From the IMG/VR virus record IMGVR_UViG_3300028840_000472: DNA of 64,000 bases. One strand, given 5' to 3'. The notes under the pieces were generated by a model. The model was not told the origin of the DNA and searched no databases. It saw only the letters and a list, made by a program, of their open reading frames with translations. Position 1 is the first letter of the stretch. Every line of letters begins with the position of its first letter. The translations under genes and the position numbers were made by a program. The stretch comes from a virus. Its lineage: Duplodnaviria; Heunggongvirae; Uroviricota; Caudoviricetes. This document shows positions 7,742 to 62,006 of this stretch, piece after piece.

Positions 7742-7869
7742 GTGCGGGCAATATAGCGGGGTGTCGCAGTGTCGGCAAGTACCGGGATCACAGTGCGGGA
7801 ATTTCTGACGGCGGCACGCGGCCAGCGGGGATGCGGACGCGAATCGTTCGTATTTACATCATCATCCAG

Positions 7870-8210
7870 AAGTGTCGTCGCGCGTACGCGCGCGCGCATA
7901 TATGGGCAAAGTTTTTTTTCGACCCTTCAAAAAAATAGGCGCACCACCCCCTTTTATATACGAATCAATAACCTGCAGCAAAGGTAGCAGTGAGGTAGCA
8001 CCTGTGCAGCGCTGTAAGTCCCTGTTTTACAACGGAAGGTAGCACGGAATCACAGGTAGCACAGAAAAAACGTGATTTTCGAAATTAAAAAATTTTCCCC
8101 ATATAGCAAGTGATTCACACAAAAAAATAAAGGTTAACTTGTTGAATTTTAAGCAAAAAAAAGGTAGCGACCATGGTGCTACCACGGTGCTACCTTTGCT
8201 ACCTTGTGAG
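7870..8210. repeat. Iteron-like GGTAGCA(C) array with AT-rich spacer and an alternating (CG)n(TA)n tract; copy A of a roughly 200-bp duplicated non-coding element
   Basis: GGTAGCA copies at about 7983, 7994, 8038, 8055 and 8163, with inverted GTGCTACC copies at about 8176, 8187 and 8197. A roughly 100-bp AT-rich tract lies between the two repeat sets. The 26-nt alternating Pu/Py stretch cgcgcgtacgcgcgcgcgcatatat is at about 7876-7901. The segment is homologous to 45345..45545. Confidence 0.6.
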
Positions 8211-8367
8211 GGAAATCAATAACTTGCGACTGTGCGTCGTGTTACCCGATTGAATTACTTCATCTTTTTCCCTTGTAGCCAGTTTACGGAGATAAGAACC
8301 AATGAAAACAGCGCAACGGAAACCTGTCGAGGGGAATCCCCACAGCGCTGCACAGCAGCCTATACGA

Positions 8368-14276: not shown

Positions 14277-14619
14277 ATTCGTGTAACTCCGTTCTCATAT
14301 CACGTAGTGCAGATTCAAACTTGTCGCGGTTGCGTTCCGCGTACGCCATTTCCAGACGCCGAAGGATCAGCTGTGCATCGGAATAGACGGCATGATTCAG
14401 ATCCCGGTATACGTCGCGCATGGCAAGATCCAGATCGCCTTCCGCGCATGTGAATGTACGCTTCCATCTGACGCTTACTTCGTAGTCGCGCGTGACCTTG
14501 TACGGTGTAGACGGTTCCGTTATGTCTTCGACCTTGTACGTCGGCAGCGTCCACCATTCTTCGGCTGGTCGATAGTTCCCGGTATACTCCGGTCGCAGTA
14601 TGCGCAATAACCTAGACAC
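14266..14619 (-). CDS. Hypothetical protein (117 aa)
   Basis: ORF track. Confidence 0.4.
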   Translation of the reverse strand: MSRLLRILRPEYTGNYRPAEEWWTLPTYKVEDITEPSTPYKVTRDYEVSVRWKRTFTCAEGDLDLAMRDVYRDLNHAVYSDAQLILRRLEMAYAERNRDKFESALRDMRTELHEYDK

Positions 14620-14863
14620 GACAATTCCATCGCGTAGCGATCACAGTGAGCACACGCGCTTCTTCGATCGTGCCGTAGCGGAACGTATCAGGGTTCCACG
14701 TTTCGCGACCGGTCAGTGTCAGTTCGTCAGACTTCTGCATGGACATGCCAGCGCCGCACCCGTCGCAATCGATGTCGATCATGCTACCCTTCACGTGCAC
14801 GCGCGGATCCGTGCCGCAGAATGGACACGGCAAAAATTCTATGTTCTCGACCGTAGTGCCCAT
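14612..14863 (-). CDS. Lar-like (restriction alleviation family) zinc-ribbon protein
   Basis: LPCPFCG...CDGCG zinc ribbon near the N-terminus, as in Lar-family proteins. Confidence 0.4.
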   Translation of the reverse strand: MGTTVENIEFLPCPFCGTDPRVHVKGSMIDIDCDGCGAGMSMQKSDELTLTGRETWNPDTFRYGTIEEARVLTVIATRWNCRV

Positions 14864-16516: not shown

Positions 16517-16646
16517 CGATGTGTCCGTTCTGTATGTTCTGTTCCAGTTGTTCTTCCGGCGGCATCTTCAGCCACAGGTTCGGATACCAGTGCCCGGATA
16601 AATCCCACGCGCCCCACGGCACGCTAACCTTGATGTCGTCAGACAT
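16422..16646 (-). CDS. Hypothetical Trp-rich protein (74 aa); its C-terminus overlaps 16250..16516
   Basis: ORF track; the N-terminal two thirds look protein-like. Confidence 0.25.
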   Translation of the reverse strand: MSDDIKVSVPWGAWDLSGHWYPNLWLKMPPEEQLEQNIQNGHIDAKSKQGRRAIATWGRSSERYTGQRNRRSDS

Positions 16647-16921
16647 TAGTGCAGATCCCCCGGTGCCGCGCCATGCGGTGCGGGTTCTGCTGCGCTTGTA
16701 CTGGTCAGTGCGCTGCGTGCCTTGTCCATGCGACTGTGTAGTCGTTCCAGTTCGTCGGCGTTCTTATTCAGCTGCCTGCACGCCGCCTTGATTTCGTCTT
16801 CACTGCGCGCGATGCTTTGTCGCAGCTGCTTCTCTTTCTTCCCGGCCATGACGAACGCGATAGACGCGCCGATGATCACGCCGAAGGTTCCGCCAACAAA
16901 AAAAGCTGACCCGCATTCCAT
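16646..16921 (-). CDS. Small membrane protein (91 aa)
   Basis: GGGGA RBS before the internal ATG; transmembrane segment FFVGGTFGVIIGASIAFVMAG. Served by a TTGACG-17-ATAATT promoter at about 17060-17095. Confidence 0.4.
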   Translation of the reverse strand: MECGSAFFVGGTFGVIIGASIAFVMAGKKEKQLRQSIARSEDEIKAACRQLNKNADELERLHSRMDKARSALTSTSAAEPAPHGAAPGDLH

Positions 16922-17242
16922 TACGTAATCCCCGCATGTTTGAGTAAACGCAACACCATCGCAGCGGCCAGCATAAATGCAGCGACGGCTATCAACGCAG
17001 CGCGCAAACAGCGCCACACGAATTCCTTTGCGTTCATCCCCTGATTTCTAAATTTCTAACACGTGACAATTATGCCACGTCAAAAAACTGCGTCAAGAAA
17101 AAAGTTCAATAATTTGTGTCGCCATGCAGCCGGCCATAAAGCCGTAATAGAACGCCAGTAGACAGGCGATCCATGCAACGATGCGGCGGCACTGTGCGTC
17201 ACAGTCTCCCATGATCACATAGCGCCGCCGCGACGATTTCCT

Positions 17243-18304: not shown

Positions 18305-18826
18305 TTACGCGTTAGCTTTTTCATCGCGCATCCCCTGCATGTACTCTCCGCCCTTTGCGTCGATGATACGCGACACAACCGCGTGTGACACTTGGCAATT
18401 GCGCGAGATCTGACCGATCGACATATCTGTGCGGTAGTAGTAGAACAGCACGCGGTCTTCGAGTTCTGGCCGCGTCTGGAAGCGCCCTGTCGTTTGTCGC
18501 CTGCCGGCAGTGCGTCGGGATCCGGTTCCGTAAAACGGCACCCTGCGGACCTGACAGACGAACACAGCGACGTCGTCCGGGTCGGTGATACATGTCGTAG
18601 ATTGCGACACGCGATAATAGTTTTCACCGGGTCGCCGGATGCCGTCCTTCACCGGATCGTGAATTTTGTCGCGCATGGAATTTAACGTCGCCGCCTTTGC
18701 GTTCAGCAGCAGTTCGCGCGCGGCAGTCGCCGCGCCCATGGTCGGATAGCATTCGTGCGGGTAGTGTTCTTCACCGACGTCGTCTGTCGCATCCTTCGAC
18801 ACGTACAGCATGAAAACTTCCTTCAT
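18305..18826 (-). CDS. DNA-binding protein with C-terminal HTH (about 173 aa)
   Basis: ATGA overlap with the upstream stop; GGTGGA RBS; C-terminal RTDMSIGQISRNCQVSHAVVSRII HTH. Confidence 0.4.
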   Translation of the reverse strand: MKEVFMLYVSKDATDDVGEEHYPHECYPTMGAATAARELLLNAKAATLNSMRDKIHDPVKDGIRRPGENYYRVSQSTTCITDPDDVAVFVCQVRRVPFYGTGSRRTAGRRQTTGRFQTRPELEDRVLFYYYRTDMSIGQISRNCQVSHAVVSRIIDAKGGEYMQGMRDEKANA

Positions 18827-19740
18827 TCGTCCACCTTGTAGTCTGATTTGATAATCCCGTTTTCCCGCGCACCGACGATACACGGATGCACGTACACGTC
18901 GCGCTGCTTGTCCGTGCCGCGATGCAGCCGGCGGTAGTGCCCGCGCCGCACGTGCATCGCCGGCGATGCGTGTGTCCCTATGTGTTCGATGTAGCGCTTG
19001 TCGTTATGCTGTGGCAGCTTGATCGTATGGTACTGTTCCAGCGCGATGCCTTTCTTCTTCGCGCGCATCTGCTTCAGTCGCGACGGCGTCACCAGTTCAA
19101 TGTCGACGTTTATCGCGTTAATCAGCGTCAGTATGTCCATTAATATTGTCGCGCCGCTATCGCACATGTTTAATGCTTCGTCTTTGAAGTCCGGCTTGAT
19201 GTCAAAACCGCCGGCAAACGAAATCAAGCGACGTTCTTCAAGGCCGCTGTCATCGACAATTGTATCGATTCCCCATTTCAATATCCCCGCAGTCATGAAC
19301 GGCACGAACAGCGGCTGATCATTCCAGCGCAGGTACGGGATCATCATCGTATATTCGTTGTCTTCGTCTTCGATGCAATGCAGCGCGCAGGTTGCGACCT
19401 GTGCGTGCACAGTATCCCCGTCGCTTATGTCAATATCGTAGAAGAACACACAATCTGGAAACGGCAAACGCTGCAGCGGAAGATTTTTCTGCGGGTCATA
19501 GCCGTGACTGTCCGGCACGTTATACAGATCGACGATAAACATCTTCGCCCGCAGTGATCGTTCGCCCATGGTTTGCGCCCAGTGATGCGCCACAGGTTCG
19601 TCTGTAATTTCGAAATAGTCGCCGACTTCATTTGTCGACTGCCGCGTCGCGTGCAATAGGTTCATGTACTCCCCCGGCATTTCACGGAATGCCGTCATCG
19701 TACGACGGAACATGTCGATCTCTTTCGCGGTTGTGTGCAC
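18823..19740 (-). CDS. Hypothetical protein (305 aa)
   Basis: ORF track. Confidence 0.5.
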   Translation of the reverse strand: MHTTAKEIDMFRRTMTAFREMPGEYMNLLHATRQSTNEVGDYFEITDEPVAHHWAQTMGERSLRAKMFIVDLYNVPDSHGYDPQKNLPLQRLPFPDCVFFYDIDISDGDTVHAQVATCALHCIEDEDNEYTMMIPYLRWNDQPLFVPFMTAGILKWGIDTIVDDSGLEERRLISFAGGFDIKPDFKDEALNMCDSGATILMDILTLINAINVDIELVTPSRLKQMRAKKKGIALEQYHTIKLPQHNDKRYIEHIGTHASPAMHVRRGHYRRLHRGTDKQRDVYVHPCIVGARENGIIKSDYKVDE

Positions 19741-20705: not shown

Positions 20706-20718
20706 GCATAAATGTCAA
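20706..20718 (-). promoter_or_regulatory. Conserved early promoter TTGACATTTATGC (copy 2), -10 CATACT
   Basis: 13-mer plus 65-nt conserved leader. Confidence 0.6.
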
Positions 20719-21130: not shown

Positions 21131-21306
21131 CCCCTTTAGAAAATTTTTTTCGCGATGGTGAAGCTGTGACCGTAGGCATGGCAGCTGTAGACTTCCTTGC
21201 CGTCGGCCTCGACGATGACGAGCGCGTCGCGGGTAAGTTCCGTGCGGACCACAAAAGTGATGATAAGCGGAAGGCAGCTGGCGATTGCGATTATGGCGTT
21301 GATCAT
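21126..21306 (-). CDS. Small membrane protein (about 60 aa)
   Basis: ATG preceded by the GAGGACACGACC leader; hydrophobic N-terminus MINAIIAIASCLPLIITFVV. Coordinates approximate. Confidence 0.3.
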
Positions 21307-21360
21307 GGTCGTGTCCTCTATGTCGTGGTGTCTTGCTTAATTTCTATAATACGCTTATCG

Positions 21361-21373
21361 GCATAAATGTCAA
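21361..21373 (-). promoter_or_regulatory. Conserved early promoter TTGACATTTATGC (copy 4), -10 ATTATA
   Basis: 13-mer plus 67-nt leader. Confidence 0.55.
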
Positions 21374-21380
21374 CACCTTT

Positions 21381-21412
21381 AGAAAAAAATTTACCGGTGT
21401 TTTTTGCACCGG
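21381..21412 (-). terminator. Rho-independent terminator (hairpin CCGGTG-caaaaaa-CACCGG plus U-run)
   Basis: Perfect 6-bp stem followed on the minus strand by TAAATTTTTTTCT, directly after the stop at 21391. Confidence 0.5.
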
Positions 21413-25915: not shown

Positions 25916-26170
25916 TCAGTTAGCGATGCCGACACCCTTGCCTTCGGCGTGATTCCGGGCGTCCATTTCGCTGTCGAAGGTCGGAAACTTCATCGTGTAG
26001 GCGTTGCCCTGCGCATCGTGCCAGACGCGCCCGCCCATGATGTCGGAAGTCGTCGGCTGTGCCGGGTATCCCAGCGCTGCCGGCAGCGTGCCCACGAAGC
26101 CCCAGCGGCCTGACGGATGGCGGATAACGTGTACGCCCAGATCCCGTGATATAACGTCGTATGCGTTCAT
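25916..26170 (-). CDS. Hypothetical protein (84 aa)
   Basis: ORF track. Confidence 0.45.
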   Translation of the reverse strand: MNAYDVISRDLGVHVIRHPSGRWGFVGTLPAALGYPAQPTTSDIMGGRVWHDAQGNAYTMKFPTFDSEMDARNHAEGKGVGIAN

Positions 26171-26182
26171 AGTCGTGTCCCC

Positions 26183-26407
26183 TTAGATGCGGTCCAGTGA
26201 TTCGGCGAAGCCGTCGATGTCGGCCAGCGCTTCAGCGGCCAGCGCTTCTTTGCTGGCGATCCATGCGCGGGTAGCGGATGCGACGACGACTTCAGGATGC
26301 TGCGCGATGGTGTCGGCGTCTACGCGGCTGGTGATGAAGTCAACCAGATCGGCGACGGCGTCGGCGTCAAGGTTGTGGTCAGCTGCGAATTTGTTGATCA
26401 GGTCCAT
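26183..26407 (-). CDS. Hypothetical acidic protein (74 aa)
   Basis: ATG preceded by a GAGGACACGAAC leader and promoter copy 6. Confidence 0.45.
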   Translation of the reverse strand: MDLINKFAADHNLDADAVADLVDFITSRVDADTIAQHPEVVVASATRAWIASKEALAAEALADIDGFAESLDRI

Positions 26408-26465
26408 GTTCGTGTCCTCAGTTCTGTAGTTTTGCTTCAGTGTGTCTTCACTATATGGGGTATCG

Positions 26466-26478
26466 GCATAAATGTCAA
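26466..26478 (-). promoter_or_regulatory. Conserved early promoter TTGACATTTATGC (copy 6), -10 TATAGT
   Basis: 13-mer plus 71-nt leader. Confidence 0.6.
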
Positions 26479-26564
26479 CCCCTTTAGCGAAAAAAATCCG
26501 GCGACTGGCAGAAGGCGAGGACACGACTCCGAAACCTTCCGGGGATCCAGCTGCCGGATAGTGT

Positions 26565-30356: not shown

Positions 30357-30725
30357 TTAGTAGGTGATGTTCGCGACCATTTCGTGCCAGCCTTCGACGG
30401 TCGCCGGGTAGCCAGCGTCGCGGCACTGCTTGCGCATGTGGGGTTCAAGATAGCCCTTCCCCATCATGATGTTAAGCGGGGATTCATCCCGTTCGAGCGC
30501 GCCCAGATACTCTTCGACGGTGAAGTTCTTCACCATGAAATTGACCCATGACTTCCACGCCCTGTTGTACTTGAAGCGTGCGATGAATGCAGCCTTCGGA
30601 AGACCGAAGCGGGTCGGATGGCAGCGCTCGCCGTTCTCGCCGTAGTAGGTCGTATACACGCCCTGCTCGCCTTCGTAGGTCAGATACATGCCGTCCCAGT
30701 TGAATTTGTCTTTGTCGAAGTTCAT
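30357..30725 (-). CDS. Hypothetical protein (122 aa)
   Basis: ORF track; promoter copy 8 and leader. Confidence 0.5.
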   Translation of the reverse strand: MNFDKDKFNWDGMYLTYEGEQGVYTTYYGENGERCHPTRFGLPKAAFIARFKYNRAWKSWVNFMVKNFTVEEYLGALERDESPLNIMMGKGYLEPHMRKQCRDAGYPATVEGWHEMVANITY

Positions 30726-30780
30726 TGTCGTGTCCTCAGTGGTGTGTTGTGCTTCAGTGACTACAGTATCCAGTTTGTCG

Positions 30781-30793
30781 GCATAAATGTCAA
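30781..30793 (-). promoter_or_regulatory. Conserved early promoter TTGACATTTATGC (copy 8), -10 GATACT
   Basis: 13-mer plus 68-nt leader. Confidence 0.6.
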
Positions 30794-30812
30794 CCCCTTT
30801 AGAAAAAAAATT

Positions 30813-42944: not shown

Positions 42945-43062
42945 TTCTGAACATCCTTGTTTCTGTCAGTTCTATGACGGGGCATTATACACCACACGAA
43001 CGAAAAGGGAACCGCGCTAAATACTTGATTGCAAAGGTCGGAAATTTTATTTGCTAAAGGTG

Positions 43063-43075
43063 TTGACTTTTATGC
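43063..43075 (+). promoter_or_regulatory. Conserved early promoter, plus strand (TTGACTTTTATGC, copy 10), -10 ATTATA
   Basis: Preceded by AAAGGTG as in other copies; 78-nt leader ends in GAGGACACGACAATG. Confidence 0.6.
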
Positions 43076-43140
43076 CGTAACCCGTATTATAGAAACCGTA
43101 GGACGTTACGACAAAACTTTAGAACTTAGAGGACACGACA

Positions 43141-43434
43141 ATGACCGACACAATCAAGACAGGCGACAAGGTTCGCAGCTTCGACTTCGCAGACGGTGAT
43201 TGGGGTCGCTGGTTGATCGGCGAACACGAACGCGCCGCCTACGTCGAAGGCGAAGTCGTCGAGATCTTCGAACACATACACGGCTATCAGTCGTACCGTA
43301 TCAAGGTCACGAAGGACGTCTTCGGCAACGTAGACCAGACCGACAAAGGCTACAGGACTGAAGTCGTCGTACCGGTCAACGGAACACCGAAGGGTTTCGG
43401 CGACGAAGTCTGCGACGGCGTTGAAAAGATTTAA
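43141..43434 (+). CDS. Hypothetical early protein (97 aa)
   Basis: ORF track; conserved leader. Confidence 0.5.
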   Translation: MTDTIKTGDKVRSFDFADGDWGRWLIGEHERAAYVEGEVVEIFEHIHGYQSYRIKVTKDVFGNVDQTDKGYRTEVVVPVNGTPKGFGDEVCDGVEKI

Positions 43435-43455
43435 TCAACCATAGAGGACACGACC

Positions 43456-43767
43456 ATGAACTACTTAAACGACAAAATTGAACTGACAATCGACAGCGTT
43501 GAATACCATCGTAACGGCATCGGCGGCGAAGGTTTCTACGCGATGCGTCTGGAACTTCTCGACAAGTATGAACCCGGCACAACGAAGACGTTGATCGTCA
43601 CCATCGAAGCCGACGAAGATGACCCGGACAACAAGCTGAACTACAGAAGCTGCCGCGTGATCAATCCGTTCGACGTGACTGACAAGTATCGCGGCGACAT
43701 AATCGGCGACCTGCTTGCCGCTAACGCGAAGGATATATTCAACGCGTACAGCGACGGGGGTGCGTAA
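43456..43767 (+). CDS. Hypothetical early protein (103 aa)
   Basis: ORF track; GAGGACACGACCATG leader. Confidence 0.5.
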   Translation: MNYLNDKIELTIDSVEYHRNGIGGEGFYAMRLELLDKYEPGTTKTLIVTIEADEDDPDNKLNYRSCRVINPFDVTDKYRGDIIGDLLAANAKDIFNAYSDGGA

Positions 43768-43979
43768 TGTTCAAGGTAGTGACAACCTATCGCGACGGAT
43801 TCATCGAAGACGCCGCCTACGCGTCCGCGATGAAATCATTCACGACACTGAACGCGGCGATCCGTTTTGCGGACGACGAAGCCGGCTGGGAATCCTGCGC
43901 GACAGTTAACGTCTACGACGGCGACCGCTGCGTGTACTCCCTGAACGGGACGTTCGCATGGCTGGATAAATCCGACTAA
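43767..43979 (+). CDS. Hypothetical early protein (70 aa)
   Basis: ORF track; TAATG coupling. Confidence 0.45.
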   Translation: MFKVVTTYRDGFIEDAAYASAMKSFTTLNAAIRFADDEAGWESCATVNVYDGDRCVYSLNGTFAWLDKSD

Positions 43980-43998
43980 AATTTTTTTGCTAAAGGTG

Positions 43999-44011
43999 TT
44001 GACATATATGC
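43999..44011 (+). promoter_or_regulatory. Conserved early promoter TTGACATATATGC (copy 11), -10 TATAGT
   Basis: 13-mer plus 65-nt leader. Confidence 0.6.
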
Positions 44012-44063
44012 CGATAGCCCTTATAGTGAACACACACTGCAACGAAATTTAGAGGACACGACA

Positions 44064-44237
44064 ATGACGAACACCCAGATCGCAGAGCAGATCGAAGCCG
44101 CCAAGTACCGCCAGCTTGTACTTAACTGCCACAAGCGCGGCATGTCGATCGCTGAATCCGTCCGCATCCGCATCGCGATTTCGCTTGATTTCTGCCGGGA
44201 TTCCGCTGAAGATCCGCGCGCCGGGGAGATCTACTAA
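44064..44237 (+). CDS. Hypothetical early protein (57 aa; below the ORF-track length cut-off)
   Basis: ATG after GAGGACACGACA; translation MTNTQIAEQIEAAKYRQLVLNCHKRGMSIAESVRIRIAISLDFCRDSAEDPRAGEIY. Confidence 0.45.
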   Translation: MTNTQIAEQIEAAKYRQLVLNCHKRGMSIAESVRIRIAISLDFCRDSAEDPRAGEIY

Positions 44238-44255
44238 ATTTTTTACCGCAGGGGG

Positions 44256-44268
44256 TTGACATTTATGC
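44256..44268 (+). promoter_or_regulatory. Conserved early promoter TTGACATTTATGC (copy 12), -10 CATAAT (spacer 18)
   Basis: 13-mer plus 66-nt leader ending in GGGACACGACAATG. Confidence 0.6.
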
Positions 44269-44321
44269 CCGACCCCCTGCATAATGAACCTACACTGAAC
44301 GAACACACAAGGGACACGACA

Positions 44322-44483
44322 ATGACGAACAAAGAGATCAACGCCAAGATTCAGGAAGGCAACGCCCACAAGGCAGCAGGTCGTTACGAAGAAGCTGCCA
44401 TGGCATACGAAGAAGTCTACGCGATCACCCGCGACAACATCTTCCGCCGTTGGGGTGCCGAAATGTGGCACAAGGTTCAGTAA
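44322..44483 (+). CDS. Hypothetical early protein (53 aa)
   Basis: Internal ATG of track ORF 44256..44483, positioned by the conserved leader. Confidence 0.45.
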   Translation: MTNKEINAKIQEGNAHKAAGRYEEAAMAYEEVYAITRDNIFRRWGAEMWHKVQ

Positions 44484-44510
44484 TCCACCGCAACCATAGA
44501 GGACACGACA

Positions 44511-44840
44511 ATGGCACGAAACGAATTCAAACAGGACAAGTTCAGGGTCGAAAATCCCTTCGGCAACCCGAAGGACTACAATCAGCACCTGCTGAACAAG
44601 CTGACCCACGCGCACGGCTTCGTTATGGAACACGTGCTGGACGATGACCGGGAAGAACAGAACAGCCGCTACGCCGGCGCTGCACTCGCCCGCGAAGTGA
44701 TCGGTCGGGAAGTGGTACAGGCTGCGGTCGACTTCAACAAGTGGGAAGCTGCGCAGCATACCTGCGGCCCCGCTGCCGGTGATCAGAAAGGCCGGCTTGA
44801 ACTCTTCCGCAACCGCCGCGCGGCAAGGAACGCGGCCTGA
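44511..44840 (+). CDS. Hypothetical early protein (109 aa)
   Basis: ORF track; GAGGACACGACAATG leader. Confidence 0.45.
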   Translation: MARNEFKQDKFRVENPFGNPKDYNQHLLNKLTHAHGFVMEHVLDDDREEQNSRYAGAALAREVIGREVVQAAVDFNKWEAAQHTCGPAAGDQKGRLELFRNRRAARNAA

Positions 44841-44874
44841 TCTTCGGATCAGGTCGCCCATAGATGACACGACA

Positions 44875-45252
44875 ATGAAAGAATTAAAACTAGGGGATGT
44901 CGTCGTAGTGTTCCGCCGAATCGGCGGTAACTACCTGACAGAGATCACCGGCGAAACGAAGACACTGTGGAAAACGGACGACGGTTCGCGCTGGGTCAAG
45001 CGAACAGGGTATGAGTACGGCACGTCGTCAAGCTGGTCGGGACGCACGATCGACAAGGCATCGCAGGAAGACGTCGAACGCCTGCTGCGCAAAAAGTATC
45101 GCGACGATCTGGTGCACAAGCTGCGGACCCTGAAGTGGGACGTGTTCAACCGACAGGAACTGGACGTGATATACGCCGCGCTGCAGAAGGCACTGGACAT
45201 GCGCGCAGCGCGCAAGGAACAGGAAATTAAACGCGGGACGAAAGGCCCGTAA
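44875..45252 (+). CDS. Hypothetical early protein (125 aa)
   Basis: Internal ATG of track ORF 44779..45252 with an AGATGACACGACAATG leader. Confidence 0.5.
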   Translation: MKELKLGDVVVVFRRIGGNYLTEITGETKTLWKTDDGSRWVKRTGYEYGTSSSWSGRTIDKASQEDVERLLRKKYRDDLVHKLRTLKWDVFNRQELDVIYAALQKALDMRAARKEQEIKRGTKGP

Positions 45253-45299
45253 ACAGCACAGGAGTCGTGTCCTGTCGCGGGGGTGGTGCCCCGCACCCG

Positions 45300-45332
45300 G
45301 AAGGCCGGCAGCGATGTCGGCCTTTCTTTTTG
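45300..45332 (+). terminator. Rho-independent terminator closing the rightward early operon
   Basis: GC-rich hairpin GGCCGGCAGCGATGTCGGCC followed by TTTCTTTTT. Confidence 0.5.
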
Positions 45333-45344
45333 TCGCAATTCGCG

Positions 45345-45545
45345 CCCGCGCACGCGCGCGCATATATAGGGGAAATTTTTTTCAAGGTCAAGAAAAAACT
45401 TTGGCCCGACCCCCATTTATATACCAGACCCCAAAAGGTAGCAGCGGGTAGCAGCAAACTGCCAAAAGGTAGCACCTGCGATCGCTTGTAAGTATCTTGA
45501 TTCGTAACGAAAGGTAGCACGGAATCACAGGTAGCACCGAAAAAA
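45345..45545. repeat. Copy B of the duplicated GGTAGCA(C) iteron-like element
   Basis: GGTAGCA at about 45437, 45447, 45468, 45513 and 45530. The block aaggtagcacggaatcacaggtagcac is identical to copy A. An alternating cgcgcacgcgcgcgcatatata tract and a TTTATATAC box are shared with 7870..8210. Confidence 0.6.
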
Positions 45546-45607
45546 TTTTCGGCCTTTGACATTTAGGAAAAATTTTCTCCATGGGACGCGGGACGCGCGG
45601 GACGCCC

Positions 45608-45620
45608 GCATGAATGTCAA
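45608..45620 (-). promoter_or_regulatory. Orphan promoter-like TTGACATTCATGC (minus strand) pointing into repeat copy B
   Basis: One mismatch to the conserved early -35 block. No conserved leader or ORF follows. GGGACGCG x3 lies directly upstream. Confidence 0.3.
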
Positions 45621-45767
45621 ACCTGCGCAGGGTCGTGCGCGTATATGGTTCCACTCTCGCGCCCTGTGGCGGACGCTACCGATCAAAACCCCGTCAGGGC
45701 ACGCAACCATACCAGCCAGCACCCGATCGCCGCCCGTAGCCCCTCACAGGCGGCGACAGGCACCTGT

Positions 45768-46391
45768 TCAGACGTGTGAAATGATGAAATCCCACCATGC
45801 GGCATTTTTCTTGTGCGCCCATGCACTGTGCCCGCTGACTTTGGGTAGCTCCCCTGCTGCTACCTTGATGCTGTCGACGTCGGTCGCATACTGCACGACC
45901 CGGTCGTCTGTCCCGGCGAATCCGGTGTTCCCCATTTCGCCCCAGTGGTGCTTCTGCTGCCAGCGCCACGGCAAGACACCCGTGACCCGCCGCCAGTGCT
46001 TGCCGGCAACCGTCGCCAGATCCCCGGCGTTATGGAACACCGCCCAGCGTTCGACACTGGCCGGCGGCTTCCACTTCTTCGCCAGCGCCGGCTGTATCAG
46101 GACAATGCGCCGCACCGGCGCGCCCAGCCGGCACAGATGCGCGATCAACGCCGCGCCGTTCGAGAAGCCGACCAGCGTGTCGCCCATGCCGACCGACGGA
46201 AGGATCAGCCGCGCAAGGTTTGAATTGTTGCGCGTTGCGACAAGATCCCAGTGACCGTAGTCATGCACGCGACAGATGTGCCCCGCCTTTTCTATCGCGT
46301 CGCGAAGGACAGCGATCTTCGGTTCGCCGACCTTGTGCCGTTCGTTGAAGCCGTGAATAAGATGTACCGTCTTCATGTCGTTATGCCTCAT
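45768..46391 (-). CDS. Alpha/beta-hydrolase-fold serine hydrolase (esterase/lipase-like)
   Basis: HGFN oxyanion-hole-like motif near the N-terminus and GFSNGA (GxSxG nucleophile elbow); 207 aa. Last gene of the late operon, next to the lysis genes. Confidence 0.55.
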   Translation of the reverse strand: MRHNDMKTVHLIHGFNERHKVGEPKIAVLRDAIEKAGHICRVHDYGHWDLVATRNNSNLARLILPSVGMGDTLVGFSNGAALIAHLCRLGAPVRRIVLIQPALAKKWKPPASVERWAVFHNAGDLATVAGKHWRRVTGVLPWRWQQKHHWGEMGNTGFAGTDDRVVQYATDVDSIKVAAGELPKVSGHSAWAHKKNAAWWDFIISHV

Positions 46392-46959
46392 ATCGTCGTC
46401 GTATGGTTTCCAGCACTTCCAGCTTGATCTGACAGATCCGGCCTTCCGACTTGCCGCAGAAGTTCCCGATCTCTTTCAGCGTGTACCCCTCGAAGAACAA
46501 CAGGCGCAACAGCGCGCGCTGCCATTCGGGTAGTTCCCTTGTTATATTCTCGAAGTCAATCCGCAAGTCTTCCGTCTTGGTAAAGTCCGGCGTCGGCGGA
46601 ACCATTTCGTCGCTTGTGAATAATATGTCGCGTTCGGATCTTTCCCGAACAAAGTCGATCGCTGCACCGCGCACGCGCGCGTAACTGAAGCAGCGAATGT
46701 CGACGTCGTCAGCATCCAGATTTCGCTGCAGATACTTCCTGTAGCATTTCAGAAATGCCATCCGCGATTCCTGTATCGCGTCGTCTTTCTTTGCGTCGAT
46801 TACGTTTGCCGGGAAGATTTTTATCGCGCGCATGGCGACTGCCTGAATCCAGCTGTCGAACTCGCGCAGCATTTCGCATTCGCTCTTCCTGTGTGATGTA
46901 TCGTTCGTCGGGCCAGTTGAGAAGCCGTCGCCCACAGCACGGACACTTGTCGTCGTCAT
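46381..46959 (-). CDS. Phage-encoded ECF-type sigma-70 family factor
   Basis: Region 2-like AIQESRMAFLKCYRKY...FSYARVRGAAIDFVRE. Region 4 HTH LPEWQRALLRLLFFEGYTLKEIGNFCGKSEGRICQIKLEVLETIRRRY. Confidence 0.75.
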   Translation of the reverse strand: MTTTSVRAVGDGFSTGPTNDTSHRKSECEMLREFDSWIQAVAMRAIKIFPANVIDAKKDDAIQESRMAFLKCYRKYLQRNLDADDVDIRCFSYARVRGAAIDFVRERSERDILFTSDEMVPPTPDFTKTEDLRIDFENITRELPEWQRALLRLLFFEGYTLKEIGNFCGKSEGRICQIKLEVLETIRRRYEA

Positions 46960-46962
46960 CGT

Positions 46963-47157
46963 TCATAACCGTGCTTCGCGATACTTGTCCAGATCATCGC
47001 GATGATCCGGGACGAACATTTGCGGAAGTGCCGGCGGCGGCACGTCCATAAATATCGGCGGCACATTCATCGGACTGCGATCAATGTACACGTCGACAAT
47101 GTCGTGTGTTTCAAGCGATAAGCTGCAACCCGCTACGCAACATGCTGCGCATACCAT
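46963..47157 (-). CDS. o-spanin-like outer-membrane lipoprotein (start overlaps the 3' end of the amidase gene)
   Basis: MVCAACCVAGC lipobox (VAGC) followed by a short Pro-rich mature region. The longer track ORF 46963..47199 is in the same frame. Confidence 0.45.
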   Translation of the reverse strand: MVCAACCVAGCSLSLETHDIVDVYIDRSPMNVPPIFMDVPPPALPQMFVPDHRDDLDKYREARL

Positions 47158-47594
47158 TGCCGTGCATCGAAGCACGGGCATTCTTTCGTCCATTCCCATT
47201 TTTCAATCACCCCGTCGCCGTCTATGTCGGGGGATAGATCGCGGTGCCCCAAAACCTCCGCATCTGGAACGCGCACTTTTAACGCGTCGACGATCAATCC
47301 CAGAGATAAATACTGCGCGGAAGTGAAGTTGTCTTCCGCTTTTCCATCTGCGTCGACGCCGCCGATCAAACAAATGCCCCAGCTTACGCGGTTATACCCG
47401 TAAGCATGTGCGCCGGTCTTGTCCATCGGACGACCGAACTCTATTGTCCCGTCCCTACGTATGACGATGTGATAACCCACACCGGACCAGCCGCGATCCC
47501 TGTGCCACTGGTTAATAGTTTTCACGCCGATGTTCATGCGCGGCGGTGTCGCACTGCAGTGCACGACGATGTATTTTATGTCGCTATCCCGCAT
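47133..47594 (-). CDS. N-acetylmuramoyl-L-alanine amidase endolysin (T7 lysozyme / PGRP, Amidase_2 type)
   Basis: IVVHCSATP...GYHIVIRRDGTIEFGRP...DALKVRVPDAEVLGHRDL...C signature of zinc amidases; no signal peptide. Confidence 0.8.
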   Translation of the reverse strand: MRDSDIKYIVVHCSATPPRMNIGVKTINQWHRDRGWSGVGYHIVIRRDGTIEFGRPMDKTGAHAYGYNRVSWGICLIGGVDADGKAEDNFTSAQYLSLGLIVDALKVRVPDAEVLGHRDLSPDIDGDGVIEKWEWTKECPCFDARQWYAQHVA

Positions 47595-47988
47595 CGCATG
47601 TGTACCCCTTCAGTTCGTTGAGCTGCTTTTGTAAATAGTGCAAGTGCGTATTGAACACGTCGATGTTGTGTTCTGGATGACCGTCAGCGATGTGATCATA
47701 AATCAGGTTGTCGCGTTTGTTGCCGTAATACTGCACGCGGTCCAGATCCTGAATGTAACGCTGTGCACCCAGTGCGACGATCGTCACAACCAGCGCGCCG
47801 GCTGCAATCAGGTTCGCCCATGGTGTGCGCTGTGAATTGTTTATCGCGTCGCGCAGTCCATCCAGATGTGTGTACATCGACGAATGCTGCTCGTTCATGT
47901 GTTCAAACTGCTTCGATACCGCGTCAACAAAACTTTCGACTGTCGCTTCCAGTCTGGACAGCCGGTGCTCTAAATTCGAATCTGTCAT
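47584..47988 (-). CDS. Lysis-cassette membrane protein (holin or i-spanin-like; one transmembrane segment, 134 aa)
   Basis: Central transmembrane segment WANLIAAGALVVTIVALGA between an N-terminal coiled-coil-like region and a C-terminal domain; directly upstream of the endolysin. Confidence 0.4.
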   Translation of the reverse strand: MTDSNLEHRLSRLEATVESFVDAVSKQFEHMNEQHSSMYTHLDGLRDAINNSQRTPWANLIAAGALVVTIVALGAQRYIQDLDRVQYYGNKRDNLIYDHIADGHPEHNIDVFNTHLHYLQKQLNELKGYTCDAG

Positions 47989-48099
47989 ATTGTTATCCCT
48001 GTCGTAATGCGTAGACCGCAGTGCCGTAGGTTACATTCGCACTGGCTGTCGCCGCTGTCGACCCGTTCACAAAAACCTGAAAAGTATCGTTTGCTTCCA

Positions 48100-49668
48100 T
48101 CAAGATTTACCTGCGTGCTTACTTATGCGCGCCTCTGTTAGCGTGGTGGCATATATGGCAACCTCGTCAATTGTTCCATTGAGATACCATGACGCGGCAG
48201 CATCACTCCCTATATGCACATCGTAGGTTGTGCCGGTATTTAGTGTTCCGCTTGTGCCATTGGTAGATACTGTTGCAGATACGCCATCGATGAATAGACG
48301 CGCTGTGCTTATGTTTGCGCCTGAACTAACTTGGCAGACAATGTGATACTTGCCGCCATCATTCACAACGCCCGCCCATCTTTTGAAATATCCACTGCCA
48401 ATATCAAATTGTATTTTCCCGTTTGACCGGACATAAAGAAGATTCCGCGCTCGCGCTGCGGCTGTTCCCCACATCATTAACGGGCCATCGCTCGCTGTGC
48501 TTGTGGTGCAGCTAAAGATGCACTCCATAGCACGGGCATTGCTGCCAAGTATCCCGGAAGCAGTTGTTGATACATAAGTCGAACTTGCATTGCTGAATCT
48601 GTATGCAGCATCGCCAACAATCCTGAATGGTGCGCTAACAAGCGCAGACACCTTAGTGGGGGTGTTTATGTATTGGCCATCAGCCTTGCCGGTATAGTCG
48701 GCTGCGGCACTTGCCGGACTTCCTTCATCAAGCCGCCAATACCATTCAGGCGAGTCAGCGATCACTGCGCTTGTGTAGGCATAATGGAATCCGTCAACCC
48801 CGTAGTAATACAAGTTCCTGACTTCCGTGCTTGTCAATGCGCGAGTAAATAGCGCCACATGACCAGCGCGGCCATTCATCCAGCGCGACGAGTTAGGCTG
48901 TGCGCCGATATAGTCATCAGTAACAAGACCGGCTGAAGCGTATGAATACACGGAGCTTCCGAACGTCACAGCAGTTGAAGCAACAACCTTTTCAGCGTTG
49001 AAAAACATCGCCATTCTATCTGTTGCATAGTTGGCAATGCCCACAACCATAAGCGGCGCATTGCGCTCGCCGGTCGATGTTGTGTGCTGAATTGTTTGCA
49101 GGCCGTCAGCAGTTCTACTACGCGCACCAAAGCGGAGAACGTTTGTTGATTGACAGTCGAACGACAACCCAAAACGACTTACTGAGTCATGTCCAATATA
49201 AGTCACAAAGGGCGAATCATTTGTATTGAGTAAGTCAAGCTCAAGCCACATGAGCAGCGTGACTGCATCAGCGCCGTTCAAATTTCTTCCAATCCTGCCC
49301 TCTTCAATTTTCAAGGCATCATTTATACCATCAAAGTTCCAGCTTGTGTCGCCTGTTGTTGATACCAATACAGAATAACCAGCCGACGCCTGCGCTAAAA
49401 CTGAGGCGTTATATCCAAGCACTACCTCAACCGCTGATGTTGCCGCTGACGGTTCATTCATCGGCCAATAAAGTGCTGGCTCTAAAAACAGGACATAGCT
49501 TGCGTAACTACTGACGGGAGAAGATGCGCCAGCACTTCCGGGGGAGCCGTGGAAGTACGCCGCGCCCATGCCGCCGCCCGTGCCGATAAAACTGAACACG
49601 TGCGACTGAAAAAAACTATTAAGCTGTCTTTTCATCGGAATTGTAACCCGCCAGCCATGCCGTACCAT
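48100..49668 (-). CDS. Tail fibre / receptor-binding protein with two LamG (concanavalin A-like lectin) domains
   Basis: Two copies of the Laminin_G_3-type C-terminal motif: GHVALFTRALTSTEVRNLY and GTIDEVAIYATTLTEARI. Confidence 0.5.
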   Translation of the reverse strand: MVRHGWRVTIPMKRQLNSFFQSHVFSFIGTGGGMGAAYFHGSPGSAGASSPVSSYASYVLFLEPALYWPMNEPSAATSAVEVVLGYNASVLAQASAGYSVLVSTTGDTSWNFDGINDALKIEEGRIGRNLNGADAVTLLMWLELDLLNTNDSPFVTYIGHDSVSRFGLSFDCQSTNVLRFGARSRTADGLQTIQHTTSTGERNAPLMVVGIANYATDRMAMFFNAEKVVASTAVTFGSSVYSYASAGLVTDDYIGAQPNSSRWMNGRAGHVALFTRALTSTEVRNLYYYGVDGFHYAYTSAVIADSPEWYWRLDEGSPASAAADYTGKADGQYINTPTKVSALVSAPFRIVGDAAYRFSNASSTYVSTTASGILGSNARAMECIFSCTTSTASDGPLMMWGTAAARARNLLYVRSNGKIQFDIGSGYFKRWAGVVNDGGKYHIVCQVSSGANISTARLFIDGVSATVSTNGTSGTLNTGTTYDVHIGSDAAASWYLNGTIDEVAIYATTLTEARISKHAGKS

Positions 49669-59846: not shown

Positions 59847-60568
59847 CTATTCCGCCTTTGAACCTTTCTTCGACATGACGTTGAGATACGCGACGTCCAT
59901 TGCAGTGATAAGCCGAACAAACATGTCGCGATCGTCTACCCCGTACAGTCGAATGTATGCTTCGATTTCAGTTAGCGGAATCGGGCATATTCCGAACCCT
60001 ACCTGACGGCTGCGCGTTAGTATGTAGAAAGCATTTACATATTCGCACAGTTCGTCAGGTAGTTCCGGCTTCGCAACAAGTGCTGGCGGTTCATGACCAA
60101 GGACAGGGATCAGATCTATCAGGAACTGTTCTCTGTCTCCCCAGTCTGCGAACCACTCGATCCAGCTTGCGACTTTCCCTCAGATTCCGCGACCTCTTCT
60201 TCCCTGAACAGTTCCATTTCCTGTGACAGTTCGACGACCAGTTGACGGAAGTCGCGCAGCTTCGGATTCATCAGGATTTCGACAGCAGCTTCGATCGAAT
60301 ACGGAAGATCTTCGCCGCCGTACTTCATCCCGCGCCAGTCAACAAGGATGCCTTCGGCAAGTGCCGTGCACATGATCTTGTCGGCGACGTCGTCCTTCAT
60401 TGCGCCCGTGTTAATGATCCGCTTATACGGTGCCATTTCACGCTGCAAAGACCGCTGGAAATTCTTGTTTCCGTACCGCGCGATCTTCACTTCCGTTTCG
60501 GTGTCCACCGGACACCAGACGCCGTCGTTCGACTTGTTGGCGTCAGTCTCGAATACGTTCAGGTCCAT
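59847..60568 (-). CDS. Tail assembly chaperone frameshift product (gpGT-like), made by a programmed -1 shift at GGGAAAG (about 60173..60179)
   Basis: The -1 frame is open from the slippery heptamer G-GGA-AAG, about 17 codons before the G stop, to a TAG that abuts the TMP ATG. This is the same heptamer as lambda G/GT. Confidence 0.55.
60119..60568 (-). CDS. Tail assembly chaperone (gpG-like, acidic, 149 aa)
   Basis: Acidic small protein between the major tail gene and the TMP; contains the slippery site near its 3' end. Confidence 0.6.
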   Translation of the reverse strand: MDLNVFETDANKSNDGVWCPVDTETEVKIARYGNKNFQRSLQREMAPYKRIINTGAMKDDVADKIMCTALAEGILVDWRGMKYGGEDLPYSIEAAVEILMNPKLRDFRQLVVELSQEMELFREEEVAESEGKSQAGSSGSQTGETENSS

Positions 60569-60596: not shown

Positions 60597-61787
60597 TTAC
60601 GCGGGCAGTGCGTCGATCTGGATGGAGTACACGCCGCTGTTATCGATCGATGCGCCCCACGTGCCATCCTGCACGACGTCCTGATTTCCGCCACCGGCGG
60701 CGATCGTGAAGTCGGTATAGGTAACAAGCGGAACATCGACGACGTAGCTATTGCCGTCAAGGTCATCGATCTGGAAACGGAAGTTCGACTTCGTGCCAGC
60801 GGTGAACTTGTCGATCAAGCTATTGTTCTCGAAATACGCGGTCACGTTGCCGGTGATCTCGCAGCGTCCAGTACCCACGCCGGCCAGCGTGTCGGAACCG
60901 ACCTTCGCCTGCTCGCGCGGGTTGTTGTTGATGTCCAGCGAAATCGACTGGAACGCGATACCCGTGACAGCCTGCCCGCCTTCCCAGACGCGACCGACGT
61001 TGCCGGATGCGTTCATGACCTTGTTCGTCGAACCGGCAGTGGTAGCCGACGCGATGGTCGCAGATGCAGTCGCCTGCCCCAGACCCGTGAAGCCGATGCT
61101 GCCGGTCAGGATGTTCTGCGATTCAAAGTTCAGGGACATGGACGTGGCGCGCATTCCGGTGTACTGCGCGAACGAAGATACGTCAGCGAATTCCTTTTCG
61201 ATCGTGAAGGACTTCGGCGTGACGCCGTTGCGGATGTGACGACCGACGATGTCGGTAGCTGCGGCGAACGCTTCGGACGTGAACGTGGCAGCGGATCCGC
61301 TGGACGCGTCGGCCATGTAGATCTTGGCGCTGTCGCCAGTGGTCGACACGGCAGTGACGCGGTAGTCGCCATCGTTGGCCGTTGTCGTCGCGTTACGGAT
61401 GCGCAGGAACTGTCCGACTACGACATGATTCAGGGCAGAAGAATCCGCCTGTACGTGCGCGCTGGACACCCGTGCGGACGCGACAGCAGCCGACACGGCA
61501 GTCGTGACCCATGCCTGTTGCATGACGCCGGCGATCAGCGGTTCGATGTCGTTGTAGCGAAGTTCGAAACCGACGTCGCCACCGGCACCGCCACCGACCT
61601 GCGTGATGTCGGAAACGTTCCGGTCTGCGCGGATGGTTTCGGATGTAACGGTGTTGACGTTCGACTTCAGGGATTCCGACGTGATGTTGATTTCCTGCAT
61701 TGCAGGACCGGTCGGAGTCGTGCCGAATTCAGTTTCTTCGACGTAGCGTAGCGCTACGCGATTGCTATCAGCTAGTGCCATGGTCAC
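60597..61787 (-). CDS. Major tail (tube) protein, probably with a C-terminal Ig-like extension (396 aa)
   Basis: Position immediately upstream of the G/GT-TMP string (lambda V position); strong GGAGG RBS; Thr/Ala/Ser/Gly-rich beta composition. Confidence 0.5.
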   Translation of the reverse strand: MTMALADSNRVALRYVEETEFGTTPTGPAMQEINITSESLKSNVNTVTSETIRADRNVSDITQVGGGAGGDVGFELRYNDIEPLIAGVMQQAWVTTAVSAAVASARVSSAHVQADSSALNHVVVGQFLRIRNATTTANDGDYRVTAVSTTGDSAKIYMADASSGSAATFTSEAFAAATDIVGRHIRNGVTPKSFTIEKEFADVSSFAQYTGMRATSMSLNFESQNILTGSIGFTGLGQATASATIASATTAGSTNKVMNASGNVGRVWEGGQAVTGIAFQSISLDINNNPREQAKVGSDTLAGVGTGRCEITGNVTAYFENNSLIDKFTAGTKSNFRFQIDDLDGNSYVVDVPLVTYTDFTIAAGGGNQDVVQDGTWGASIDNSGVYSIQIDALPA

Positions 61788-61792
61788 AGCCT

Positions 61793-61832
61793 CCCGTATA
61801 GGTTGAAATCAATACGGGAAGGCTGCTGTCTG
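61793..61832 (-). other. 5'-UTR hairpin that pairs the GGGAGG Shine-Dalgarno of the major tail gene
   Basis: On the minus strand CAGCCTTCCCGTAT-tgatttcaacct-ATACGGGAGGCTG; the 3' arm ends 5 nt before the ATG at 61787. Confidence 0.45.
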
Positions 61833-62006
61833 GTGCGGCGTTTGAACGTTGCCAGACGCGAACCCGTTCAGCAGATACTAGCGTCTACCGCCTTCTTCTG
61901 CAACCGTCTTTTTCAGCCATTCTTCCCACGCCTTGATCATGCCCTTCGCCAGACGTATAAGCGTTTCATGAAGTAGAATTGTGGACTGGCGCACACTTTC
62001 ACCACG

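Follow-up and report, generated by a model that had tools for sequence, protein, structure and literature searches.

The window analysed here, a stretch of 64,000 nucleotides from the Caudoviricetes record IMGVR_UViG_3300028840_000472, carries at 46381–46959 on the minus strand a frame of 192 codons counted from its first ATG. Judged by its sequence and by a structural model, this gene encodes a protein of the sigma-70 family. Our reading is that the protein comes from the FliA/sigma-28 lineage and that, because it has lost the sigma3 domain, it has the two-domain build of the extracytoplasmic function (ECF) sigma factors without being one of them. Two further features go with the gene. A leader frame overlapping its start out of register is the best-conserved feature of the locus, and sigma-28-type promoter sites are nested inside several of the sigma-70 promoter cassettes of the same genome. 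The best explanation of these features is a functional FliA-lineage sigma lacking sigma3, using the nested sites and with its expression linked to the leader; we give this explanation about an even chance of being correct.

The assignment to the sigma-70 family has several supports. The NCBIfam sigma-70 superfamily model TIGR02937 is matched at 53.5 bits (cutoff 42.9), the Pfam region 4 model Sigma70_r4 (PF04545) at 40.7 bits and E 1.7e-10 (cutoff 24.1), and PHROG 1740, "RNA polymerase sigma factor", at E 7.5e-14. The AlphaFold2 model of the protein has a mean pLDDT of 81, with residues 1–26 disordered. The sigma2 domain (residues 27–111; 46627–46881, minus strand) forms three helices at pLDDT 92–98. 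It holds the core-binding motif DxxQE as D60, Q63 and E64, all invariant columns in the family alignment, and also the motif F-x-Y-A-R-V-R-G-A. A linker of about 16 residues (111–128), disordered in the model, leads to the sigma4 domain (residues 127–191; 46387–46581, minus strand), a four-helix domain found alike by PF04545, AlphaFold2 and alignment to FliA. The recognition helix of sigma4 reads SEGRICQIK, compared with SESRVSQLH in FliA, and within it Q177 is invariant and R174 conserved in the family. The first-pass annotation had reported a phage-encoded, ECF-type sigma factor with clear regions 2 and 4 at this place. A sigma-70-family protein with sigma2 and sigma4 is indeed encoded there, at exactly the coordinates given above. 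Region 4 is clear by Pfam, but region 2 is weak by that measure (Sigma70_r2, 15.1 bits, under the cutoff of 24). It is clear in the AlphaFold2 model and with a profile of the phage family, which aligns to the sigma2 domain of Pseudomonas aeruginosa FliA at an i-Evalue of 5e-13.

As for the ECF label, we regard it as right for the architecture and wrong as a family assignment. Like the ECF (group 4) sigmas, which are of a similar size (~170–200 amino acids, aa), the protein consists of sigma2, a short linker and sigma4 alone. The top Foldseek match to its model is the Mycobacterium tuberculosis ECF factor SigL, although two-domain ECF sigmas and sigma-28 match about equally well. The sequence comparisons point elsewhere. 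The ECF-type region 4 model Sigma70_r4_2 (PF08281) scores 20.7 bits, under its cutoff of 25.7, whereas PF04545 is over its own, and none of the NCBIfam ECF subfamily models comes near its cutoff. The best partial NCBIfam matches are to the FliA/WhiG models, all of them far under cutoff, as with TIGR02479 (FliA_WhiG) at 55.7 bits against 189.6. When the family profile is run against all sequences in the Protein Data Bank, FliA is matched at 9.9e-32 (about 1e-31) and WhiG at ~1e-27, while the best ECF match is at 1.3e-8, an E-value 23 orders weaker than that of FliA. The sigma2.2–2.4 motifs are common to FliA, WhiG and the phage proteins, and the sigma4.2 helix of the phage family, E(S/G)R(V/I)(C/S)Q(I/V)H, is close to the ESRVSQLH of FliA. 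The FliA match consists of two stretches, sigma2 and sigma4. FliA residues ~105–188, comprising sigma3 and the sigma3/4 linker, are without counterpart in the phage family, so that in place of the three-domain FliA plan and its sigma finger there is the 16-residue linker. The phage protein also differs from ECF sigmas in having no recognisable anti-sigma gene beside it (its neighbours, a lipoprotein-like open reading frame (ORF) and an alpha/beta-hydrolase, have no match to an anti-sigma family) and no AAC/CGT-type promoter motif that we could find. It differs from FliA in being phage-encoded, in having no FlgM-like partner that we could see, and in its conserved overlapping leader. Phages are well known to encode sigma factors (PMC9429907, PMC8948821), and a FliA-like one lacking sigma3 was not found described in the open-access literature. 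A two-domain sigma of FliA lineage would bear on the relation of group 3 to group 4 and on the role of sigma3 at sigma-28 promoters.

The family is small. An exhaustive search of 1.84 billion protein cluster representatives gave just 11 at E<=1e-10, a word-indexed protein search returned only the query itself, and a scan of metagenome contigs with the sigma alignment was swamped by generic FliA-like region 4.2 matches and added no useful members. The sigmas are only ~30% identical to each other. An alignment of 13 sequences conserves DxxQE(A) in region 2.2, F-x-T-Y-A-x-x-R-V-R-G-A in regions 2.3–2.4, and the form L..WER..L.L.Y..G.TLKEIG...GVTESRVCQIH in region 4. A related 74.7-kb phage (loci L006/L010) has tail proteins 43–77% identical to those of the window and a sigma 37% identical, encoded after an endolysin and a small lipobox ORF and before an opposite-strand cluster. 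In four loci with unrelated backbones (L008, L011, L012 and L117), the family member follows a discoidin-domain (F5/8 type C) protein. It is the last ORF ahead of a strand switch in L011 and L012, and two further same-strand genes come after it in L117; the L008 contig ends at the sigma gene. The end-of-array position seen in the window is conserved in part.

Since the protein is FliA-like, we scanned the genome for the sigma-28 consensus, and the matches fell on sigma-70 cassettes. The early/middle region and the opposite-strand cluster contain 12 copies of a very uniform promoter cassette, which agrees with the first-pass view that the early genes have strong sigma-70-type promoters. Each consists of a T-rich tract, (T/G)CTAAAGG(T/G)G-TTGACATTTAT-GC, six variable bases, four bases, and TAnnnT, and then carries a conserved leader segment and the ribosome-binding site (RBS) GAGGACACGA(C/A)AATG. 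Three cassettes are on the plus strand (43062, 43998 and 44255) and nine on the minus strand (36099, 30781, 30259, 26466, 25854, 21361, 21118, 20706 and 9065). Within the sigma-70 spacer, ATTTATGC is nearly invariant, being exact in 9/12 cassettes. In the cassettes at 20706 and 44255, an 8-bp inverted repeat, GCAGGGGG...CCCCCTGC, clamps the -35 element and the spacer and may be an operator.

The elements of the P. aeruginosa fliC promoter are (-36)TCTAAAG(-30) and (-15)GCCGATAA(-8), i.e., with 14 nt between them (PMC12784957). The scan used this consensus, TCTAAAG-N14-GCCGATAA, with 15 positions. Four sites with two or fewer mismatches were found against 0.06 expected, and 0/100 shuffles reached four. 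One is a perfect sigma-28 consensus promoter (15/15; 21355–21383, minus strand), nested in the cassette upstream of a 56-aa gene (21136–21306). The second, GCCGACAA (14/15; 30775–30803, minus strand), is in the cassette upstream of a 122-aa gene (30357–30725). The other two match at 13/15: GCTAAAG ... GCCGATAC (26460–26488, minus strand), in the cassette upstream of the genes at 26183–26407 and 25916–26170, and GCTAAAG ... GCCGATAG (43989–44017, plus strand), in the cassette upstream of the genes at 44064–45252. A weaker fifth site, GCTAAAG ... GCCGTAAC (11/15; 43053–43081, plus strand), lies in the divergent promoter region, and in the remaining seven cassettes the -10 position is occupied by unrelated sequence, mostly rich in G+C. 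The spacing is exactly 14 nt in each of the four sites, all of which are in cassettes with T-rich upstream tracts, and TAAAG accompanies GCCGATA in 4/4 cassettes with a -10 match against 2/8 without. The cassettes with sigma-28-type sites precede small-gene clusters on both strands. Among 2.4 Mb from 148 viral loci that are PolA- or primase-related and sigma-less, only background matches and no cassette appeared.

On the explanation that we prefer, the sigma would bind the core RNA polymerase (RNAP) of the host and initiate at the TCTAAAG-N14-GCCGATAA sites in four, perhaps five, of the 12 cassettes. Since the spacer of TTGACA-17-TAnnnT contains the sigma-28 -10 element, the predicted starts of the two holoenzymes are ~11–12 nt apart, and nearly identical mRNAs would be made for the small-gene clusters. 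The sigma-28-type start would depend on GCCGATAA and should be lost on a change of GCCGATAA to GCCGCGCA, to which the sigma-70 start should be insensitive. The sigma would then open a further way into selected early/middle operons that does not depend on sigma-70, and possibly into the sigma-28 regulon of the host; it would not be a switch for the structural genes. If this is so, the nested dual promoters keep the same operons running under two holoenzymes. Sigma-28 promoters nested in phage sigma-70 promoters were not found in the open-access literature. The residues expected to read the promoter are kept in part. In P. aeruginosa sigma-28, Q228 and S224 of sigma4.2 are base-specific readers of the -35 element, with the Gln reading -36T, and Y76, I79, R82 and R97 act at the -10 and extended -10 (PMC12784957). 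The equivalent of Q228 is invariant in the phage family (Q177 in the window protein), and the aromatic and RxR equivalents are kept.

A number of points weigh against this explanation. The equivalent of S224 is Ser in most members of the family but Gly in the window protein and in L006. Sigma3, which in sigma-28 contacts the template strand near the -10 element, is absent, and R97, the reader of the extended -10 GC, sits at the sigma2/sigma3 junction, so its equivalent is unplaceable now that the junction is gone. The four sites belong to one repeat family and are not independent events. The T-rich tract and AAAG would also serve sigma-70 as an UP element, and the FliA of the host could itself be the user of the nested sites. 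A sigma made from the last cistrons of a lysis cluster would come very late for early-type promoters. Finally, no sigma-28-like sites above chance occur in the sampled DNA of other phages with the sigma (L006/L010, 20 kb; L011, ~30 kb; L012, 20 kb; L117, 9 kb), the L008 locus scans at background only, and a repeat search found no promoter cassettes in L006, L011 or L273. The presence of the four sites in the genome is plain; that this sigma is what uses them is something we infer, with no cross-phage support.

The first-pass annotation had the sigma redirecting RNAP to the late promoters, that is, to the operons for packaging and head, tail, and lysis. There is good precedent, since T4 gp55, SPO1 gp28 and gp34 and phiEco32 gp36 drive middle or late genes (PMC9429907, PMC8948821). 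The window sigma resembles these factors (phiEco32 and 7-11 gp36, SPO1 gp28 and gp33/34, T4 gp55) in that it would be a phage-encoded specificity subunit for host core RNAP, and in matching the PHROG "RNA polymerase sigma factor" families. In addition, sigma-70-like promoters are few in the late region, and the terminase genes are preceded by a 626-nt gap that contains an unusual repeated element. Every intergenic gap was extracted from the public gene calls, and none of those upstream of late genes contained a sigma-28-like site at >=11/15; nor did the region upstream of the sigma gene. There were no convincing shared k-mers among the late gaps, and the three where a common motif unlike that of sigma-70 had been anticipated (7742–7870, within the gap 7742–8367; 61782–62006; and 47989–48099) share none. 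The window sigma differs from the known middle and late sigmas in having no tblastn similarity to INPHARED records, in the position of its gene, which is at the end of a lysis cluster and outside the early and middle genes, and in candidate sites that are nested in the sigma-70 promoters of small genes instead of standing before structural genes. It is also the next-to-last cistron of the very array that would need activation, a position kept in L006, and it has no promoter of its own that we could find. Nothing found supports the late-promoter model, and we consider it improbable.

The repeated element deserves description in its own right. It is about 240 nt long and occurs exactly twice in the 78 kb examined, both times in the minus orientation, within the gaps 45253–45767 and 7742–8367. 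The copies bracket the late region, one upstream of the terminase genes and the other just downstream of the sigma and hydrolase genes, where it faces antisense genes; that second location and the mere two copies count further against the late-promoter model. Each copy has four to five GTGCTACCT iterons, an GTATATAAA(T/A)GGGGGT box, an A-tract and TATATATGCGCGCGCG, and the copy in 7742–8367 adds three inverted iterons. Its candidate roles are those of an origin, a packaging or activator site, and the late promoter. As a promoter for the sigma it was rejected, since the only two copies are at odds by 9 nt in the distance from the last iteron to the TATA-like box. Separately, the gap upstream of the tail tube gene (61782–62006) contains a sigma-70-like site, TTGCAG-17-TAGTAT, and a long hairpin, CAGCCTTCCCGTAT...ATACGGGAGGCTG, directly before the RBS.

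The location of the sigma gene at the distal end of the late operon, also pointed out in the first pass, is confirmed: it is the next-to-last gene of the long tail/lysis array. The inference drawn from that location, an additional promoter for the sigma, is not supported. From 46,900 to 48,100 the coding strand yielded no sigma-70-like promoter, and the frames there are packed in a way that suits translational coupling (an ATGA stop/start overlap). Synthesis of the sigma appears tied to late/lysis expression.

The sigma could instead be an auxiliary FliA mimic aimed at the host, one that switches on the host sigma-28 regulon (flagellar and chemotaxis class 3 genes) late and free of FlgM, with the sites in the phage genome incidental or served by the FliA of the host. 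The recognition helix and the nearest solved relatives are those of FliA, the gene occupies an accessory-gene position beside the hydrolase at the end of the lysis cluster, and phage sigmas acting on host programmes are known, e.g., sporulation-like sigmas (PMC9429907). The lack of sigma-28-type sites in the sampled DNA of other sigma-bearing phages would also follow. A 15/15 consensus at the exact spacing within cassettes of the phage itself is not easily dismissed as incidental, however, and a search with the leader found the family in none of 185,579 reference genomes, which gives no hint that it is used in prophages or lysogeny. On balance we think this reading quite unlikely. A role directed at the host could nevertheless go together with the use of the nested sites.

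The start of the sigma gene is where the leader comes in. The leader ORF (46709–46966, minus strand) has 85 codons, each starting one base before a codon of the sigma frame. Its ATG at 46966 overlaps the TGA of an upstream 78-codon ORF (ATGA). The first 30 residues of the leader are MNDDDDKCPCCGRRLLNWPDERYITQEERMRN, and the L006 counterpart is VSDGKCPHCGVRKMTWPNERYISQEEGRRRN; in L008, L011, L012, L117, L118, L120 and L121, the leader takes the form M(P/S/T)RELNWPxERY(I/Y)CEEERR. In the window, the 15-codon core R-L-L-N-W-P-D-E-R-Y-I-T-Q-E-E (46883–46927, minus strand) aligns gap-free. The peptide RELNWPxERYxCEEER is found at 13 loci in unrelated phages (nine with DNA and four as called peptides of 55–84 aa on short contigs) and is better conserved than the sigma itself. 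In all nine loci with DNA, the sigma frame stands at +1 relative to the leader frame. The overlap of the leader start with the upstream stop reads ATGA in the window, GTGA in L006 and L120 and TTGA in L121; that of L008 is preceded by GGAGGA. Further searches added little: the leader was not found in the reference genomes mentioned above, in IMG/VR it was in only three contigs already known, and a degenerate DNA pattern for NWPxERYI in viral contigs returned only a contig already known. No conserved out-of-frame leader on a sigma gene was found in the open-access literature.

The substitution pattern shows that the leader frame is translated. Across pairwise comparisons of the nine loci, 54% of codon differences in the core are synonymous in the leader frame; for the sigma frame and the third frame the figures are 12% and 11%. 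The leader Arg is kept across CGT, AGA, CGA and CGG codons, and in 5/9 loci the leader core contains a stop when read in the sigma frame. Between L011 and L012, the first 120 nt have 17 and 15 differences at the third and first positions of the leader frame and six at the second, while beyond 120 nt there are 32 at the third positions of the sigma frame and six at the second. For that reason the alternative frame was rejected as a full-length overlapping gene: beyond ~120 nt, substitutions follow the sigma frame. The leader frame nevertheless remains open for 55–129 codons in every locus and in none of them ends soon after the conserved part. This exceeds synonymous shuffles with per-locus P values from 0.009 to 0.30. 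The long open frame is explained neither by a separate ORF nor by frameshifting.

We lean slightly toward the leader being a separate overlapping ORF, which would either limit or time translation of the sigma or make a small protein of its own. Ribosomes coupled onto the leader would run across the sigma start and hold sigma synthesis down. This resembles control by upstream ORFs (uORFs) in having a short conserved peptide that overlaps the start of a regulator gene; it differs in that the leader runs 55–129 codons into the sigma gene with no stop near the main start. A sigma-frame start is available in every locus upstream of the conserved sigma region. At four loci, the sigma-frame ATG arises from a leader AAT, CAT or GAT and the G of the next (Glu) codon, and the N-terminus of one family member (P0003), read from its sigma-frame start, aligns with the true FliA N-terminus.

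Alternatively, leader and sigma are one protein, begun at ATG 46966 and shifted +1 into the sigma frame after ~20–30 codons. Much in the locus is in keeping with this. The leader start is the sole conserved initiation site, with translational coupling or a strong Shine–Dalgarno (SD) sequence, and the sigma-frame starts are conserved in neither position nor type (ATG, ATG, GTG, GTG and so on; L011 has a GTG at codon 3, and L012 a stop at codon 5 and a GTG at codon 14). The sigma-frame stops within the core, the +1 offset in 9/9 loci and the failure of any leader ORF to stop shortly past the conserved part all fit, and so does the short single zone in which selection changes over from leader frame to sigma frame. 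There is also an invariant Arg codon (CGA, AGA or CGT) after a purine-rich, SD-like (GAR)3 tract. The arrangement recalls prfB, in which likewise the upstream frame is one base behind the main frame and a purine-rich SD-like tract stands ahead of the frame-switch zone. What is lacking is the rest of a prfB-type signal: there is no CUU-UGA-type site, the loci share no slippery codon, the junction lacks a 0-frame stop, and conserved hairpins are absent, with zero pairs predicted when conserved RNA structure was sought over the leader/sigma junction. Searches with a leader profile and with a synthetic-fusion profile revealed no lineage that carries an in-frame fusion and brought up only four short leader ORFs. 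The usable sigma-frame starts, that of P0003 above all, also count against a fusion, and +1 frameshifting is rare in bacteria. We therefore think a frameshift fusion somewhat unlikely. Unlikely as well is the combined proposal of a phage-only, sigma3-less, FliA-like family made by conserved +1 recoding and using hidden sigma-28-type promoters. If recoding were true, frameshift efficiency would set the output of sigma, and the sigma would carry the conserved RELNWPxERYxCEEER at its N-terminus. In either case the leader would be a useful addition to what is known of the control of phage gene expression, whether as a conserved overlapping ORF of a new class, regulatory or coding for a small protein, or as a new +1 recoding site.

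For the window protein, the candidates for the N-terminus are ATG 46959, ATG 46872, and entry by way of the alternative-frame ATG 46966. The public gene call starts at ATG 46872 and gives 163 aa, and automatic calls across the family range from 163 to 238 aa with varied starts. The overlapping conserved leader shows that N-termini taken from automatic gene calls are not to be relied on in this family. In L011 (9940–10040) and L012 (1165–1265), there is a 17-codon tandem duplication at the leader/sigma junction. Copy 1 is conserved in the leader frame (MLRRRDMER) and copy 2 in the sigma frame (YSDASHWTEEE), so that the frame in which the duplicated segment is read apparently differs between the copies.

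The window corresponds, in reverse complement, to part of an 88,079-bp metagenome contig. The identical sequence was assembled several times, and because the break points differ among the assemblies, the phage genome is suggested to be complete and either circular or permuted. No similar record was found among INPHARED phages by DNA or by tblastn, the sigma included. Almost every gene lies on the minus strand. Followed in the direction of transcription, the map runs from the divergent promoter region (42945–43140) into genes for an SNF2 helicase, a primase-polymerase, a UvrD helicase, PolA and dozens of small ORFs. The 626-nt gap (7742–8367) comes next, followed by the terminase, portal and head genes and, after the wrap-around, by the tail tube, tape measure and RcGTA-like distal tail genes. 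A LamG fibre, a transmembrane (TM) protein, the endolysin, the lipobox ORF, the sigma and the alpha/beta-hydrolase then complete the late/lysis array. Past the hydrolase, a 515-nt gap (45253–45767) meets seven small genes on the plus strand (43141–45252).

The genes about the sigma look like a lysis cluster. The endolysin (47133–47594, minus strand) is an N-acetylmuramoyl-L-alanine amidase by Pfam Amidase_2 (E 2.8e-17). Upstream of it is a 134-aa protein with one predicted transmembrane segment and no family match (47584–47988, minus strand), a candidate holin or i-spanin by position alone. The 78-codon ORF (46963–47199, minus strand), absent from the gene calls, overlaps the amidase gene and has a signal peptide and a lipobox-like VAGC, which make it a candidate spanin-like lipoprotein; L006 has a lipobox-bearing 81-aa ORF in the equivalent place, without sequence similarity. 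The last gene of the array (45768–46376, minus strand) is alpha/beta-hydrolase-like, with HLIHGF and GFSNG motifs and a weak match to Pfam FSH1. A serine esterase ending a lysis cluster would recall mycobacteriophage LysB. PHROG searches with the hydrolase, the TM protein, the lipoprotein-like ORF, the leader and the opposite-strand genes gave no match. The opposite-strand cluster ends in an intrinsic terminator (45299–45326, plus strand) with a 12-bp stem and a T run. That T run serves the plus strand only, and no minus-strand intrinsic terminator was found after the hydrolase gene in 45253–45767, so late transcription may read antisense into the plus-strand cluster.

A few other observations were made along the way. 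In L006, a tandem array of 14 register-shifted copies at 12-/18-nt spacing lies inside an opposite-strand gene (16646–16932). In the window, 272 nt (59847–60118) between a 149-aa Phage_YdaY-like gene and the tape-measure gene are apparently non-coding; the spot before the tape-measure gene is the usual site of the frameshifted extension of the tail-assembly chaperone. Two small middle genes on the minus strand have weak Pfam matches, one to an AcrVA2-like protein (18823–19740, 305 aa) and the other to a Lar restriction-alleviation-like protein (~14540–14790), and from these matches they are candidate anti-defence genes.

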